Part shown: piece by piece, positions 2,755 through 43,189 of the stretch
Layout: the number at the start of each line of letters is the position of its first letter
Numbering within the stretch: the stretch's first letter is position 1
DNA from: Candidatus Kapaibacterium sp.
GTDB lineage: Bacteria; Patescibacteriota; Patescibacteriia; UBA9934
Length of the DNA stretch: 43,189 bases
Reading direction: 5' to 3'
NCBI GenBank assembly: GCA_044350705.1
Contig: JBILHA010000001.1
Location: 310,242 to 353,430, forward strand
Made by a program: the position numbers and the translations under genes
The notes under the pieces: model-generated
Told to the model about the DNA's origin: nothing
Seen by the model: the letters and a program-made list of their open reading frames with translations, nothing else
Databases searched by the model: none

Positions 2755-3168
2755 ATGAAGCATCGTCAACACGAATATCCTCGCATTCCTTTTTCTGGCA
2801 TTAAACTTCGTCGTGGTCTTTCGGGGTTTGGTATTTTTGCTACTGAACCTATAAAAAAAGGAACGTTCATCATTGAGTATTGGGGCCCTTTGCTCAATGA
2901 TGAAGAAACGACGAAAAAAGGAGGGAAGTATCTTTTTGAAGTGGCTAAAAATAAAACCATCGACGGATCATCCCGCAAGAATACTGCCCGTTACATTAAT
3001 CATGCGTGTAAACCTAATTGCGAGGTAACCATTACCCGGGGTCGCGTGTTTATCCATGCGATCAAGAATATCAAGGAGGGAGAAGAGCTGACCTATGATT
3101 ATGGGAAAGAATATGTCGATGAGTATATTAAGCCATATGGTTGTCGATGTAAGACGTGTAAGAAATAA
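2755..3168 (+). CDS. SET domain lysine methyltransferase with post-SET cysteines
   Basis: GFGIFA, RYINHACKPN, ELTYDYG, CRCKTC. Confidence 0.9.
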   Translation: MKHRQHEYPRIPFSGIKLRRGLSGFGIFATEPIKKGTFIIEYWGPLLNDEETTKKGGKYLFEVAKNKTIDGSSRKNTARYINHACKPNCEVTITRGRVFIHAIKNIKEGEELTYDYGKEYVDEYIKPYGCRCKTCKK

Positions 3169-38065: not shown

Positions 38066-41000
38066 ATGAACACTCCTAAAGAAAATGAAAGCTTAGAGGC
38101 CTCACCCATTCCATCGCCTCGCGAACTTTATAAATCTTTCCACCCAGATTTATTTTCTGACTCAGTAAAGAATACCGAACCTCAGCTGAATAGCATCAGC
38201 CTTGAAAACCACCTTTCAACTCTTGGAAACCGAAGGCAGGAAACGGATTTTGAAAATTTTGCAAAAGCCCTTATTCAAAAAACAATTTGTCCTAATTTAC
38301 TCCCCCAAACAGGATCTACTGGTGGTGGAGATGGCAAGGTAGATTCAGAAACCTTTCCTGTTGCAAGTCAGCTTTCTTTGGCCTGGTGGACGGGGGTTAA
38401 TAGCGAAGCGGACTCCGAACGCTGGGCGTTTGCCTTTAGTACACAGAAAACCTGGAAACCAAAGTTGGGTGCCGATATTAACAAGATCCACGAAACAGGG
38501 CGTGGCTATAAAAAAGCTATTTTCGTGACGAGTGAATACGTTCGTGCCGCAGAACAAAAGGATCTAGAAGACAAGCTTAGCAAAAAATACGGTCTAGAGG
38601 TGAGGATTCTTGATAGAAACTTCATTATTGAAAAGGCTCTTTCCACCGAAAAGTTACGTGAAATTACTGTAAAAGAGCTAAAGATGGATATCCCTAGTAC
38701 GGAATACTTCAAAAAAGGTCCTTTGGATTACAAGCGGGAGCAGGAGCTTGAAGAGCTAAATGAACAAATTGAAGATACTCTTCAAAAAGGAGTGGTTAAC
38801 AATACTGTTGTTGAAGATAGTCTAAAGGCTGCGTTACTGGCTTCTCGGCTTGAGCGGCCTAAATACGAAGTAGATGGTTTTTTTGCAAGAGCGCAGCAAA
38901 TAGCAGAAAAATACGGTTCGACTCACAAAGTTCTTCTGGCCTACTATCAACACGCATGGATCTCCTTTTGGTGGCAAGAGGACTTTATGCAGTTCAACCA
39001 ACACTACGTAAAACTAGAGGCTCTCGCCAAAGGAACGATGAATGTGTATGAACTTGAACTTTTAAACAACCTTAATTCAGTTTTTGAGACAGCAGTATAC
39101 CAAGAGAAGGTGGTTCATGATGTAGATGATCTCAAAGCTCGGTTTACTTTTTTAGCTAATGAGCTAAATCGCATAGCGCAAGATGAGTCTATGTCGAGTG
39201 CCTCCCTGCACGCCAAGACAATATTGGCAGTTCGGGGGCTTATGCACAATCCAGAAGATGCAACAAAGTATCTTAAACATCTTCAGGAATTTATCAAACA
39301 ATCCGAAGGTTTGGCTGGCTATCCATTTGGAACATTCGCCGAGCTAATAATGGGGATGGGTAATGTATTCAGTACACTTCCGGCGTACCAAGAACTTTTG
39401 GATCAATTAACCGCTGCGGTTACTAAACGCGATGGAGATCTTGCGGGTGCAAAAATTTCAATTGAAAGAGCCGCACAGTTCATGAGCGCAGGTAAACCCT
39501 ATGAAGTCATACGTACCGCAGGCAGAGCGCTGCCTAAACTGTATAAAGAAGAAACTATGGAGGAGATGGTAAGGGCTCTATTTTTATGCGCAGTAGCATA
39601 TGAAGAAATAGGCTTATTTTGGGCGGCCAGAGGGACAATGCTTGCAGCAGCATCGCTAGCTCTGAGTGAATTCTGGAATCATCACCGGGTCTTTTCGTAC
39701 CAAAGTTTATGCTGCAACTTCATTAAATGGATTGAATTGCGGCTAGGAAGAGTACCACAAATACTGGCTTGGCATGAGGTAGATTCGTTGATTAAACAAG
39801 CCCTTCTACACGAAGGGTATCCAGAAACAATTTTAAGTGGTGAAGATAACTTTGACGCCATTGTTGGCATGCATTTTTTGAACGCCGACATTGATCAACT
39901 CAAGAAACTTACCAAAGTACCAGATACACTCGATCACTTAGGGCTAGAAAGATCTGGCATGGCCTTGCGTTTCGCCCTTGGTAACAAAGAGGAATTAGAA
40001 ATAATAAAGACCTCATTAGGAGATGAAGACCTGGTAGAATTTATCGCGAAATGGAGAAATCAGCCCGCAAGTGAGGACATCGTACAAAGGCCCACATTTT
40101 ATGAGGGTGATACCGTGACCCTTGAGGCTACCGTTCTTGGATGCCAAATTTCGATCGAGGCAGAAAATTCTCCGGCATGCATCGCATTATCCGAATCAAT
40201 TCTTGCGGCGCTAGAGGCATTCTTAGCCACCGGTTTTAATGATGGTGTTATAGCCAAGACTCCTCTCGTAAAGGTCACGGTACAAAGGGGAGAGGTTGAC
40301 CTTATAGAATCTGAAATCATTGAAACAGCATCGTCGGTATCAGTATCGATTGCCTGTGAAAACTTTGAGTTGAGAAAAATTCCACGTGCTAGACAGGGCG
40401 AGATCCAGGACAAGGTTTTCGGGGCTGTAGCTAATATTTCAGCAACGGGTTTCATTTTTAGTGACACGGAAAAGACCTTGGAAAAACTCTTTGGAGAGGA
40501 TCGGGTGTGTGATCGTGCCTTGGGTTTCACCTCCAGCTTTATCACAGTCGGAAACGTCTTCGGGGATGAGCAAAAGCTCTCAATGAATGATTGGTATTCC
40601 GACAAAGAAGTGATACTTGAACGTACAGAGAAGTGGGACGCTGAGTTGCCTAAAAATGCAGGCAAACCCAAAGAGGTTTTATCGGATAAAAAAGAGGTTG
40701 ACCGTACTCAGATGAAGCATACGGATATAAAACTCATTAGCCTGATCAGCGCTTCTGATTGGGACAGGGCTGGCTGGGTGGGAGTGGGATATTTAACGGC
40801 CCCATCTAGACCCCCCGTGATGATTTTACTCTTTAGTAGCGTAGCAGCTGCCAATGCTATTTTTCAAGAATGGAGAAAGCAAATTGGAGATGATGATACT
40901 GATGACAGGCTGGCAATCACCATTTTAAAAGGTATAGACACTAGGCATCCTAATTATTACCGTGTCTCCATAGGCGCAATGCCACAAGAGAAAGATGGCC

Positions 41001-41332
41001 TTGTAGTAACAATGACCAGAAACCACTTGATGACCCCGACATCAACAAGTAATTTGGATCGTTTCCTGACGAGCTATAAAGCGTATAAAGGATTTCTTTT
41101 AACGTTCGCAGTCTGTGCTGATCCAGCCGCGCTTAATCTCTCAGAGGTTCATTTTAATGAGGGCATTGTTAAACGTCATATTCACGCAAAGGAAGCCTGG
41201 GAGGTAGCGGACGGTGACATTGAAGCTCTTGGGATTTTTCCCGACGATCGGCCACATATACCCTCGGTCCACATTACTGATGCACCTGTATTGGAGCTGT
41301 TGAAGAAGCGAAAAAAACGGGGGGCTAAATAA
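38066..41332 (+). CDS. 1088-aa protein: N-terminal restriction-endonuclease-like (PD-(D/E)xK/Mrr-type) domain plus helical/TPR-like repeats; candidate defence protein
   Basis: FENFAKAL...PQTGSTGGGDGKVDSET...WAFAFS...W..K...D..KI...IFVTS, then long amphipathic helical region; no clear Walker A. Confidence 0.6.
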   Translation: MNTPKENESLEASPIPSPRELYKSFHPDLFSDSVKNTEPQLNSISLENHLSTLGNRRQETDFENFAKALIQKTICPNLLPQTGSTGGGDGKVDSETFPVASQLSLAWWTGVNSEADSERWAFAFSTQKTWKPKLGADINKIHETGRGYKKAIFVTSEYVRAAEQKDLEDKLSKKYGLEVRILDRNFIIEKALSTEKLREITVKELKMDIPSTEYFKKGPLDYKREQELEELNEQIEDTLQKGVVNNTVVEDSLKAALLASRLERPKYEVDGFFARAQQIAEKYGSTHKVLLAYYQHAWISFWWQEDFMQFNQHYVKLEALAKGTMNVYELELLNNLNSVFETAVYQEKVVHDVDDLKARFTFLANELNRIAQDESMSSASLHAKTILAVRGLMHNPEDATKYLKHLQEFIKQSEGLAGYPFGTFAELIMGMGNVFSTLPAYQELLDQLTAAVTKRDGDLAGAKISIERAAQFMSAGKPYEVIRTAGRALPKLYKEETMEEMVRALFLCAVAYEEIGLFWAARGTMLAAASLALSEFWNHHRVFSYQSLCCNFIKWIELRLGRVPQILAWHEVDSLIKQALLHEGYPETILSGEDNFDAIVGMHFLNADIDQLKKLTKVPDTLDHLGLERSGMALRFALGNKEELEIIKTSLGDEDLVEFIAKWRNQPASEDIVQRPTFYEGDTVTLEATVLGCQISIEAENSPACIALSESILAALEAFLATGFNDGVIAKTPLVKVTVQRGEVDLIESEIIETASSVSVSIACENFELRKIPRARQGEIQDKVFGAVANISATGFIFSDTEKTLEKLFGEDRVCDRALGFTSSFITVGNVFGDEQKLSMNDWYSDKEVILERTEKWDAELPKNAGKPKEVLSDKKEVDRTQMKHTDIKLISLISASDWDRAGWVGVGYLTAPSRPPVMILLFSSVAAANAIFQEWRKQIGDDDTDDRLAITILKGIDTRHPNYYRVSIGAMPQEKDGLVVTMTRNHLMTPTSTSNLDRFLTSYKAYKGFLLTFAVCADPAALNLSEVHFNEGIVKRHIHAKEAWEVADGDIEALGIFPDDRPHIPSVHITDAPVLELLKKRKKRGAK

Positions 41333-41333
41333 C

Positions 41334-41362
41334 TTGATTCTTTACCTATTTAGGAATATCAT
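41334..41362 (+). promoter_or_regulatory. Sigma70-type promoter for the structured leader RNA
   Basis: TTGATT-17-TATCAT. Confidence 0.6.
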
Positions 41363-41425
41363 TTTCCTACAACACCTAACCCCAGCATTGCGCTGGGCAC
41401 GGTGTTCACTCCTACGCAAATATTG

Positions 41426-41522
41426 AAGGTCTCTCGACCGGCACTTATTTGCGTAGGGTCGCGTTCCGTAAGGGCGCGGGGTTGTTGCCGAAAGGCGCAG
41501 CCGTCGGTTCGGGGGACCTTTT
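41426..41522 (+). ncRNA. Structured multi-branch RNA, c4/CI-antisense-like
   Basis: Closing stem 41426-41442/41503-41520 (G-U pairs on + only); two GNRA-capped hairpins (GTAA, GAAA); unpaired TATTTGCGTAGGG complementary to sites up- and downstream. Confidence 0.65.
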
Positions 41523-41562
41523 GTGTTCCTCGGATTTTTACTCATAAATCCCTACGCAAAAT

Positions 41563-42066
41563 ATGTCACAAGACAAAAAGCCCATTTTCAAAAAATGGTG
41601 GTTCTGGCTAGGTGCCTTTTTCCTTATCACCTTTGTAGCCGCAGCGGCGAGCGGACCAAGCGAAACGCAGACTTCAAAGGATAATTCACAACAAGAACAG
41701 AACCAAGCCGTATTCAATGGTCCCCACATCCTGTCGCTCACGATTGACGAAGTTCGAGACGAATACGGAATGCCAAACGAAACCTCTTTCGTCGATCCAA
41801 CACAGGAGCAAATTGATCTCGGAACGATTTCTTGGTCAAACAAATATACTCTCGACGGTTATAGCATCCTGATCGACTGGGATGTCGCATCAAGAGAGGT
41901 CACGGGCTTCTTTGTCTCCACAGACGACTCATCGGGCAAGACAAAGGATTGGGAACGCCTTGCTGCCGTTGCGGGCCTTGTGAGAGGTGTCAGCGACTAC
42001 TCGATCGAACCGATTGAAGCAAACAAGTATCCCGGCTATTACACCGGGATCAATGTGAAGGAATAA
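41563..42066 (+). CDS. Membrane-anchored protein with KKPIFKKWWFW N-terminus (prophage surface/exclusion-type architecture)
   Basis: Basic/aromatic N-terminus, TM helix, polar linker and acidic globular domain. Confidence 0.65.
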   Translation: MSQDKKPIFKKWWFWLGAFFLITFVAAAASGPSETQTSKDNSQQEQNQAVFNGPHILSLTIDEVRDEYGMPNETSFVDPTQEQIDLGTISWSNKYTLDGYSILIDWDVASREVTGFFVSTDDSSGKTKDWERLAAVAGLVRGVSDYSIEPIEANKYPGYYTGINVKE

Positions 42067-42199
42067 ACAAAAAACGCTACGCAGGTATCCGCTCTTATTT
42101 TCTGCGGCCCATGTGTGAGGTGTCCGCAATCAGGTCGAGTCTGGATAGCGAATATCTAGATCTTTGGATTATAGACGCCGTTATTGCACTTGTGGCTTT

Positions 42200-43189
42200 C
42201 TAATTCACAAGAAAATCACAAAATCGTAAATAACGCCTGAATAGCTTTATGCTCATTTCTCGGTTTCCAATAATTTCATAACTTTTCATTACATTCACAA
42301 ATCCACCATGACCAGTTGTTTTGTCGAACAAATAATTTATCATTTCTTCTTTTGTATTTATATTTTCTAGTGCGACACCAAGCCCCAAATGAAAATATTT
42401 TGAATTAGATGTGAACCGATCGGTGTGGGGAAAACTGTTTCTCTTTAGTAATTCAAGAAATGACTTAATATTTTTATTTACTGAATATGTTTTTTCAACA
42501 AGTAGCCTCCATGATTCAGGGTCGGTTAGCACAATGCCGTTATTATAGTTATTAAGTTTTTTGTATAAACCAGCGATTTTTTGTTTGGTTTTTGCTTTCT
42601 TTAATTCTTTTATAAAATCCATCTCTGAAATCTTTGTTTTCTGGCGATAATCTTCTTTTTCATCGAAAGTTATATTTACTTCCTTATTATATTTTTCACA
42701 AAGTTTTACAAACTTCTGCTTAATTTCTTTAAAATCAATATCTCTCAAAAAATAATCCAACCCCTGTTTTTTCATTTCTTCAACTTGCTGATATGCGTTT
42801 TCAAACGCCTTTTTTCTTTCGGCCTTAGTGTAAAAGTCACTTTGCGCGATGGCTAAGTAAATTTTAAACTTTTGTTCATAATAATCAGGGTCTGGTTTAC
42901 TATCGTATCTGTAATCCTGTTTGTACTCATTCATATCTCCTTCAATTTCTTCAACCGGTAGCCCTTGTTTTACTTTTCCGCTAAGTATTGAAGATATTGC
43001 TGAATTGGAAAAATTTCTCTCGCCTTTTTTCTTTTTCAAATCATTTTTCAATTCAATAGCAAGGTCAATGTCATATTTAGACGCAAGATCAATAACATTG
43101 TAGGGACCTCGCCACGTTCCTTTGCCATCCGTAATTTCGCTTACACGAAACGCGAGTTCAAAAATTCTCTTTGTGTATTCTTTAAGCTC
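42200..43189 (-). CDS. C-terminal part of a large low-GC helical protein (runs off the window)
   Basis: Frame open to 43189 (ELKEYTKRIFELAFRVSEITDGKGTW...); 15/60 GC in sampled line 42601. Confidence 0.7.
   Translation of the reverse strand, partial: ELKEYTKRIFELAFRVSEITDGKGTWRGPYNVIDLASKYDIDLAIELKNDLKKKKGERNFSNSAISSILSGKVKQGLPVEEIEGDMNEYKQDYRYDSKPDPDYYEQKFKIYLAIAQSDFYTKAERKKAFENAYQQVEEMKKQGLDYFLRDIDFKEIKQKFVKLCEKYNKEVNITFDEKEDYRQKTKISEMDFIKELKKAKTKQKIAGLYKKLNNYNNGIVLTDPESWRLLVEKTYSVNKNIKSFLELLKRNSFPHTDRFTSNSKYFHLGLGVALENINTKEEMINYLFDKTTGHGGFVNVMKSYEIIGNREMSIKLFRRYLRFCDFLVN

Follow-up and report, generated by a model that had tools for sequence, protein, structure and literature searches.

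A LOOT-family RNA leader in Patescibacteria as a candidate two-state switch of the downstream gene

The structured RNA located upstream of a short membrane-protein gene in the 43,189-nt stretch of patescibacterial DNA analysed here (the window) is a full-length member of the catalogued LOOT family (RF03000) and not a new kind of RNA. The best reading of the locus, to which we give a probability of roughly 0.6, is that the LOOT leader acts in cis as a two-state switch of the next gene's mRNA. One strand of the RNA, here called A', appears able to pair with either of two partners, of which one (A) lies within the LOOT fold and the other (B) just before the start codon. An initial annotation of the locus had proposed a new RNA-based immunity or expression switch; control of the next gene's expression is the part of that proposal that we retain, while "new" and "immunity" are unsupported.

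The family assignment comes from a scan with the Rfam 15 covariance models, in which RF03000 was the sole above-threshold match in the entire window. Positions 41373-41502 (+) scored 52.0 bits (gathering score 46.4; E 4.5e-7) and matched the model from end to end, positions 1-121 of 121. The four-helix architecture of LOOT, consisting of P1 with an internal loop, a long P2, P3 and P4, was reproduced by the energy-minimum fold of the region (41365-41575; -86.6 kcal/mol, z -5.35), and none of 200 shuffled sequences was equally stable. LOOT is carried by small Patescibacteria genomes (0.7-1.3 Mb): it occurs in 29 of the 151 genomes from the window's order and in 30 of 151 in a sample of the whole phylum. 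After one locus truncated by a contig end had been dropped, the order-level set comprised 30 loci; the phylum sample comprised 28. Independent folding gave four top-level helices in 30/30 full-length loci of the former and 27/28 of the latter.

P1 spans 41373-41404 and is the 5' hairpin that had already been recognized at this place; all features described here lie on the plus strand. According to the Rfam alignment and the folds, it contains the internal loop CCUAA/CACGG. Across 58 aligned loci CCTAA is invariant and ATGG nearly so, and the window differs from the consensus CCUAA ... (C/U)AUGG by one substitution at the nearly invariant U, which it has in common with locus L028. The internal loop resembles, we assume, the 11-nt receptor of GAAA tetraloops. 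P2 is formed by A (41410-41422) as its 5' arm and A' (41446-41458) as its 3' arm. Segment 41446-41458 had been annotated as unpaired, but both the Rfam consensus and the energy-minimum fold pair it with A as the lower stem of P2, so that A' is one strand of a 13-bp stem with its intramolecular partner 23 nt away. P3 (41459-41479) and P4 (41480-41502, at the end of the Rfam model) were placed by the Rfam alignment and constrained folds, and carry the two GNRA loops as annotated, GUAA at 41468-41471 and GAAA at 41490-41493. Conservation among the 58 loci resides mostly in the helices, the GNRA loops and the CCUAA/AUGG loop, with few conserved unpaired nucleotides available for a ligand pocket.

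Rfam types LOOT as 'Gene; sRNA', and its model stops at P4. A figure legend in the Rfam 14 paper presents LOOT as a metagenomic-based RNA; the passage on LOOT in the CaCoFold paper gives approximately 43 base pairs, six helices and 28 cross-covariations; and an excerpt of the Rfam 15 paper records two covarying pairs added for the family. In the main text of the 2017 paper on 224 motifs (PMC5737381), 'LOOT' occurs only as an author name in the reference list. Among the papers that could be searched (for LOOT/RF03000, LOOT with ROOL or GOLLD, and Patescibacteria with riboswitch), none was a functional study of LOOT. The pseudoknot, U tract and start-site copy described below may already stand in the original motif description.

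A promoter-like site occupies 41334-41362, with a -35 hexamer TTGATT, a 17-nt spacer and a -10 hexamer TATCAT, in agreement with the promoter annotated previously. It is followed by a conserved ACAA at 41369-41372. This motif occurs within 16 nt before the start of the LOOT model in 41/58 loci, compared with 7.9% of random positions, and a TANNNT hexamer is found 5-8 nt (mostly 6 nt) upstream of ACAA in 32/58 loci, compared with 0.4% of 9,993 random positions. Because of the spacing between ACAA and the -10 hexamer, transcription likely starts at the A of ACAA, 41369 in the window. Judged by these patterns, LOOT has a promoter of its own and forms the extreme 5' end of the mRNAs.

The RNA does not end with P4. 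A G-rich strand located 6-11 nt past the end of the Rfam model can pair with the apical part of P2, through at least 9 contiguous pairs in 29/30 order-level and 24/28 phylum-sample loci. In the window there are 13 contiguous Watson-Crick or GU pairs between 41425-41437 and 41509-41521. The 5' strand, L2 (41425-41437), overlaps a small apical hairpin of P2 (41428-41439), and the 3' strand, L2' (41509-41518), is outside the Rfam model. The L2:L2' pairing crosses P2 and is therefore a pseudoknot. In the 58-sequence alignment 85.8% of cells are paired (73.5% in shuffles; 0/500), all 11 pairs have changed on both sides, and the covariation score is 0.505, compared with 0.267 in shuffles (0/500) and at most 0.175 in slid controls. 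The pseudoknot competes both with the small apical hairpin and with P5, a hairpin predicted by constrained folds at 41506-41536, for which L2' also serves as the 5' arm. The separation for P5 is weak, in that a duplex energy of -12 kcal/mol or below was reached with the own partner in 22/30 loci and in 368/870 mismatched pairs.

Directly after the pseudoknot strand is a U-rich tract, UUUUGUGUU (41519-41527), whose base count suggests a terminator. At least 6 T are present within the 9 nt after L2' in 50/58 loci, against a background of 3.5%. The pseudoknot helix and the adjoining U tract therefore resemble an intrinsic terminator with an unusually long "loop": the helix is long-range, enclosing A', P3 and P4, and both helix and tract are conserved. 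Together they may act as a transcription terminator or attenuator. We note separately that the 5' ACAA and the UUGU of the U-rich motif are both conserved and could pair; inspection by eye revealed no compensatory change for ACAA:UUGU, and loci without ACAA keep the UUGU.

The complementarities that drew attention to the locus, and their coordinates, were correct by sequence reading and by pattern search. CCTACGCAAATA at 41411-41422 has its exact complement in TATTTGCGTAGGG at 41446-41458, and CCCTACGCAAA at 41550-41560, 2 nt upstream of the ATG at 41563, is a second copy of the P2 5' arm and an alternative partner of A' (site B). The layout of a target, a complementary segment and a second target at the initiation region of the next gene is thus real. 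The exact 10-mer CCTACGCAAA has three copies in the window, at 41411 (+), 41448 (-) and 41551 (+), all within the locus; with one mismatch allowed there are 9 matches, compared with 2.51 +/- 1.39 in shuffles, and 0/100 shuffles reach 9. A partial further copy, CTACGCA at 42077, had also been listed; it is one of four unlinked matches to this 7-mer, which occurs 7 times in the window including 3 within the locus, a number at chance level (2.98 +/- 1.91 expected). The A-rich bases that precede A also resemble those that precede B, a likeness that pairing with A' does not need.

Two other origins of the repeat were considered. Chance is ruled out by the 10-mer pattern search together with the comparison of own and mismatched loci described below. 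A target-site duplication or att core was rejected because P1 lies outside the repeat and yet is part of the conserved RNA, because A', the inverted copy inside it, changes together with the repeat, and because loci lacking B are otherwise intact.

The same 910-kb genome (2 contigs) holds a second LOOT copy, scoring 52.3 bits, in which the P2 arms are altered to CCTACACGA and TTCGTGTAGGG. Its B is altered likewise, to CCCTACACGAATA, and is located 3 nt before its ATG. In this copy A' pairs with B along 13 nt, and its pairing with A comprises 9 nt and a further, shifted 4 nt. A trans-target search found the cis site only, with no other start-site target of A' in the 910-kb genome. A stray 12-mer is present at G000:C1:128579 (-), away from any start codon, and 11-mers matching the second LOOT copy are likewise unlinked to starts.

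The presence of B in other loci was assessed with an alignment-free test, in which the last 16 nt of each locus's own P2 3' arm were compared with the region from +15 to +100 nt downstream; a run of at least 9 Watson-Crick pairs was scored as positive, and all mismatched pairs, with the arm from one locus and the region from another, were used as the control. In the order-level set, B was found in 22/30 loci but only in 19/870 mismatched pairs, most of these 19 having near-identical P2 arms. When sites of at least 8 nt are considered, there are 23 in this set, ending between -1 and +16 nt from the ATG that opens the ORF, and 22/23 are within 7 nt. The set contains approximately 15 distinct sequence variants of A/A'/B, and there are more in the other sets.

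The remaining two sets consist of loci that had not been used in forming the hypothesis. B was found in 4/28 loci of the phylum sample, compared with 1/756 mismatched pairs. For the third set, named genome records were scanned with a pattern, and nhmmer identified 103 of the 120 hits as LOOT; once 8 duplicates, 2 loci whose flank was too short and 9 that were partial or folded poorly had been excluded, 84 loci were left, and B was found in 19/84, compared with 46/6972 mismatched pairs. The check that had been proposed at the outset, covariation of the segment with its targets, thus came out positive in three sets. With all sets pooled, B is present in 45/142 LOOT loci and absent by the 9-nt test from 97/142, with the proviso that related loci are not independent and the counts overstate the number of evolutionary events. 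Loci of the window's order commonly have B, which is facultative outside that order. The core function of LOOT cannot depend on B because it is absent from these 97 loci.

An alignment-based count gave a more ambiguous result. In a MAFFT alignment of 28 B-bearing loci, 71.6% of A':B cells were paired compared with 58.4% in shuffles (0/500), and the covariation score hardly changed when the partners were slid by -2 columns (0.261 against 0.268). The slid score is nearly equal because MAFFT puts two subtypes in different registers. The conclusion therefore rests on the test of own against mismatched loci. By that comparison of sequences, A' covaries with both A and B across homologues, as one strand with two alternative partners.

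LOOT is also linked to the gene that follows it. A same-strand ORF starts 15-135 nt after the LOOT model in 134/142 loci (median 50 nt), compared with 71/142 in a divergent-ORF control. In the window this ORF (41563-42066, +) encodes a protein of 167 aa with an N-terminal hydrophobic helix, KKWWFWLGAFFLITFVAAAA. It had no match in Pfam, PADLOC or NCBIfam, and its five homologues (48-72% identity) are not informatively named. The proteins downstream of other LOOT RNAs are diverse: they include membrane-anchored DUF4352 proteins, membrane proteins with an N-terminal zinc ribbon, D12 and N6_N4 DNA methyltransferases, SNase nucleases, GIY-YIG/DUF4357 proteins, a TnsA-like endonuclease and DUF3267, with many lacking a family. 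Envelope-anchored proteins (DUF4352, zinc-ribbon), nucleases and DNA methyltransferases recur, and 28 of the 53 scanned proteins have no Pfam family. A leader 77% identical to that of the window, with the same A/A'/B, is present in a genome of another family, where an unrelated gene follows. An immunity role, and the reading of the 167-aa product as an exclusion protein, are unsupported: LOOT precedes many unrelated genes, and the protein has no family. As far as the protein families indicate, the lack of a single downstream function would be unusual for a metabolite riboswitch and points to no clear ligand.

The window consists mostly of ordinary chromosomal functions. The LOOT gene, however, is flanked by ORFs of 1088 aa and 1412 aa without a family match, and a large serine recombinase gene is located approximately 7 kb beyond it, across family-less ORFs, after which housekeeping genes resume. 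For three neighbouring proteins, PADLOC and NCBIfam gave nothing except one weak CARF_2OG match (E 0.0023). LOOT is patchy within the genus, being present in 4/16 other genomes. It is plausible that the LOOT gene lies within an integrated island, because of the family-less flanking ORFs, the serine recombinase gene and the patchy distribution. The earlier placement in a mobile element of the candidate phyla radiation is accordingly plausible as to context, in view of the recombinase and the 4/16 genomes. Among the named records with LOOT, the titles are mostly of Patescibacteria groups, with some records labelled as Bdellovibrionales, Gammaproteobacteria or archaeal metagenome-assembled genomes. 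Viral contigs gave 21 pattern hits, of which 4/21 were LOOT by nhmmer. Six lake-water metagenome DNA runs and no RNA run are listed for 41250-42150.

How might such a leader work? We propose that the mRNA of the 167-aa membrane-anchored protein begins with a 5' leader, 41369-41565, which has LOOT (41373-41502) as its core and can adopt two mutually exclusive folds. In fold X, A' (41446-41458) would pair with A (41410-41422) and complete the four-helix LOOT fold, leaving B and the start codon single-stranded, so that translation could start. In fold Y, A' would instead pair with B (41550-41560), closing a multiloop around P3, P4 and P5 and burying the initiation region, so that translation would be blocked. 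A 10-13 bp duplex ending 0-7 nt before an AUG would block 30S binding. A would then be a decoy copy of the initiation region that makes the two folds nearly equal in energy, and any weakening of the LOOT fold would free A' to capture B and turn translation off. The calculated energies are compatible with such a balance: in the window, fold X (with B kept single-stranded) has -80.5 and fold Y (with A blocked) -79.9 kcal/mol, and across B-bearing loci the difference between the two folds ranges from -4.8 to +5.1 kcal/mol, all values being for nested folds with pseudoknot energy excluded. In the second copy, fold Y is the energy minimum.

A second competition would be superimposed on the first, in which L2' (41509-41518) pairs either with the apical region of P2 or within P5; through the pseudoknot and U tract, transcription may be controlled as well. 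Control of ribosome access, termination at the U tract and a signal that shifts the balance are what we infer from this arrangement. Candidates for the trigger are a ligand, an ion, a protein, temperature or 5' processing.

Other explanations have to be weighed against a cis-acting switch. The leader could be a constitutive structural element without any switch, whose fold protects the 5' end or insulates translation, and in which B either tunes initiation statically or is kept A-like by local recombination. The paucity of conserved unpaired nucleotides for a ligand pocket, the diversity of downstream genes and the A-rich bases shared by the sequences before A and B would all fit such a leader. 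Static tuning, however, needs no decoy arm that keeps two folds within a few kcal/mol of each other. In addition, A and B are not always identical, and yet both keep their pairing with A', as in the second copy (13 nt for B, and 9 nt plus a shifted 4 nt for A). The presence of a second, independent set of three partners (L2, L2' and the P5 arm) points to designed competition. A static leader is less likely because the two folds are so close in energy, because a second set of partners competes and because of the downstream-ORF linkage, and we regard it as unlikely.

The mechanism implied by the initial annotation was an antisense RNA acting in trans in the manner of c4/CI. LOOT would be set free, either by processing or because transcription terminates at the U tract, and A' would pair with B on read-through or incoming transcripts, giving a mobile element sequence-specific repression or immunity. 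Several features are in keeping with this: targets and RNA follow one another in the same linear order as in P1 c4, the second target falling in the ribosome-binding region; a terminator-like U tract separates the LOOT RNA from B; the two copies in one genome differ in A'/B and would be orthogonal; a large serine recombinase gene is approximately 7 kb away; and four of the 21 pattern hits in viral contigs are LOOT. When the proposed comparison with Rfam C4 models was made, however, the only matches at E <= 10 in 41200-42300 besides LOOT were symR, mir-242_2 and mir-4875, all far below their cut-offs, with no C4-type model among them; the RNA is LOOT, and neither new nor related to C4/CI. In a review passage (PMC12197685), c4 is described as binding around the ribosome-binding site of its target and as presenting its antisense in loops, whereas A' belongs to a 13-bp stem whose other strand is 23 nt away. 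Within the genome A' has no start-site target other than the one in cis, the genes that follow LOOT are of many kinds, none of them regulators, and 97/142 loci have no B. If the RNA came free at the U tract it could still act in trans; overall we consider such action quite unlikely, below even a static leader. Least probable of all is an independent small RNA with a function unrelated to the neighbouring gene and an incidental downstream repeat, which would suit the Rfam type 'Gene; sRNA' and the RNA's own promoter and terminator-like end, but which is disfavoured because of the same fold energies, competing partners and linkage to the downstream ORF in orientation and distance (134/142 versus 71/142), and by B covarying with A' and sitting at the start codon.

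Returning to the cis-acting switch, we suggest a more general role for LOOT, which is offered as a tentative idea and carries well under even odds. LOOT may be an orphan riboswitch-like sensor specific to Patescibacteria (the candidate phyla radiation), in the form of a portable promoter and leader whose domain is compact, apparently through docking of a tetraloop into its receptor. It would read a cellular signal and gate accessory genes for envelope and DNA-handling functions by means of a pseudoknotted terminator, to which many lineages would add a decoy of the translation start region; the window would contain one such unit in a probable integrated island.

To our knowledge, few regulatory RNAs have been described in Patescibacteria. 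To a family lacking an assigned function, the present analysis adds a patescibacterial host range, a position at the 5' end behind its own promoter and a three-way covariation, and an orphan "sRNA" becomes a testable candidate for a cis-regulatory switch. Inclusion of the pseudoknot, U tract and start-site copy would improve the LOOT family model. If a signal were found, it would hint at what these reduced cells, most of them uncultured, are sensing as they make their surface proteins, nucleases and methyltransferases.

Finally, we compare the locus with known systems. With the LOOT model itself (RF03000) it shares a full-length match, the four helices, the two GNRA-capped hairpins and the CCUAA / (C/U)AUGG loop, while the partner strand of the window's pseudoknot, the U tract, P5 and B are all outside the Rfam model. 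The c4 RNAs of phages P1 and P7 and the CI RNA of P4 (C4, RF01695) carry target, RNA and target in a single transcript and owe their specificity to a few covarying bases. LOOT has the same succession of target, complementary RNA and target, with the downstream target at the ribosome-binding region. It differs in that its complementary segment is in a stem, in contrast to the loops that the review passage describes for c4 antisense; in that it precedes diverse membrane proteins, methyltransferases and nucleases unrelated to antirepressors; and in its fold of four helices with a pseudoknot and the lack of a trans target in the genome.

LOOT can also be compared with translational riboswitches and attenuators that have a sequestor and an anti-sequestor. 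As in these, there is a 5' leader with a structured domain and a strand that could pair either internally or with the initiation region, and LOOT also has a terminator-like helix with a U tract. Features expected of a riboswitch were found in the same-strand leader close to an ORF (134/142 loci) and in the mutually exclusive pairings A/A'/B and L2/L2' with the U tract. LOOT differs in having no known ligand and no clearly coherent set of regulated genes, and in that its terminator-like helix is a pseudoknot spanning P3 and P4. Its decoy and target are near-identical copies of 9-18 nt, which is longer than usual for such platforms. A further parallel is offered by the mRNAs of the hok family, with their tac, fbi and dcs elements, in which one segment has two alternative partners and the coupled covariation is taken to reveal successive folds, a programmed refolding that gates translation and is triggered by 3' processing. 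The RNA, its context and the partners are different in LOOT, but here too one segment has two partners, and all three covary.

The LOOT RNA (Rfam RF03000) lies at 41373-41502 on the forward strand of the window, in the leader of a gene for a 167-aa protein (41563-42066). At its probable 5′ end is a conserved tetranucleotide, ACAA (41369-41372), which occupies the same place in 41 of the 58 aligned loci. ACAA could pair with the UUGU of the conserved UUUGUGUU motif; no compensatory change was seen for this pairing. Two segments are complementary to A′ (41446-41458), namely A (41410-41422), its partner in P2, and B (41550-41560), which ends 2 nt before the ATG. The bases directly 5′ of A (41405-41409) and of B (41544-41549) resemble each other and are rich in adenine (AAAACC... 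and AUAAAUCC... are examples), and the same is found in other loci, with exact repeats as long as 16-18 nt in L013 and L014. This likeness is not needed for the pairing of A′ with either segment.

The LOOT gene stands between two long ORFs. On one side is a 1088-aa ORF (38066-41332, forward strand), for which no match was found in Pfam, PADLOC or NCBIfam. On the other is a 1412-aa ORF on the reverse strand, extending from 42200 past the window's end to position 4280 of L060, a stretch of the same genome; it has no Pfam match, and the 329 aa inside the window gave a single weak PADLOC match, to CARF_2OG (E 0.0023). Its DNA is markedly AT-rich (GC 0.31-0.36, compared with ~0.44-0.49 nearby). About 7 kb past the LOOT gene there is a gene for a large serine recombinase of 522 aa with Resolvase, Recombinase and Zn_ribbon_recom domains (L060 6965-8533; G000:C1:359364-360932 in contig coordinates), beyond which lie housekeeping genes (M17 aminopeptidase and Met-tRNA synthetase). 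The recombinase gene, the unannotatable ORFs ahead of it and the housekeeping genes after it together suggest that the LOOT unit belongs to an integrated island about 13 kb long.

Elsewhere in the window, a carotenoid-type cluster within this 0.9-Mb genome (12293-17196) encodes Caroten_synth, UbiA prenyltransferase, a phytoene desaturase-like flavin amine oxidase, squalene/phytoene synthase and polyprenyl synthetase. A gene that immediately follows an ABC-2 transporter operon (2755-3168, forward strand, for the gene) encodes a protein of 137 aa with a SET domain (PF00856, E 1.4e-26).

Genuine LOOT matches (nhmmer) also occur on MAG records titled Methanofastidiosum, Bdellovibrionales, Gammaproteobacteria, Nanoarchaeia, Pacearchaeota and Acetobacterium (L061, L063, L068, L070, L071, L095, L102, L121 and others); these records may be mislabelled or mis-binned Patescibacteria contigs. 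Among 21 pattern matches on viral-classed IMG/VR contigs there are four LOOT copies (L182, L184, L196 and L198), on contigs of 15-41 kb.

Finally, the window leader (41328-41564) shares 77% identity across 157 nt with that of L027, a locus from the genome of a different family; the A, A′ and B sequences of the two are identical. The proteins encoded behind them, the 167-aa protein and a DUF4352 protein, are unrelated; the L027 protein instead resembles the DUF4352 protein behind the second LOOT copy of the window's genome, with 69% identity. Leaders and genes therefore appear to have been shuffled relative to each other.
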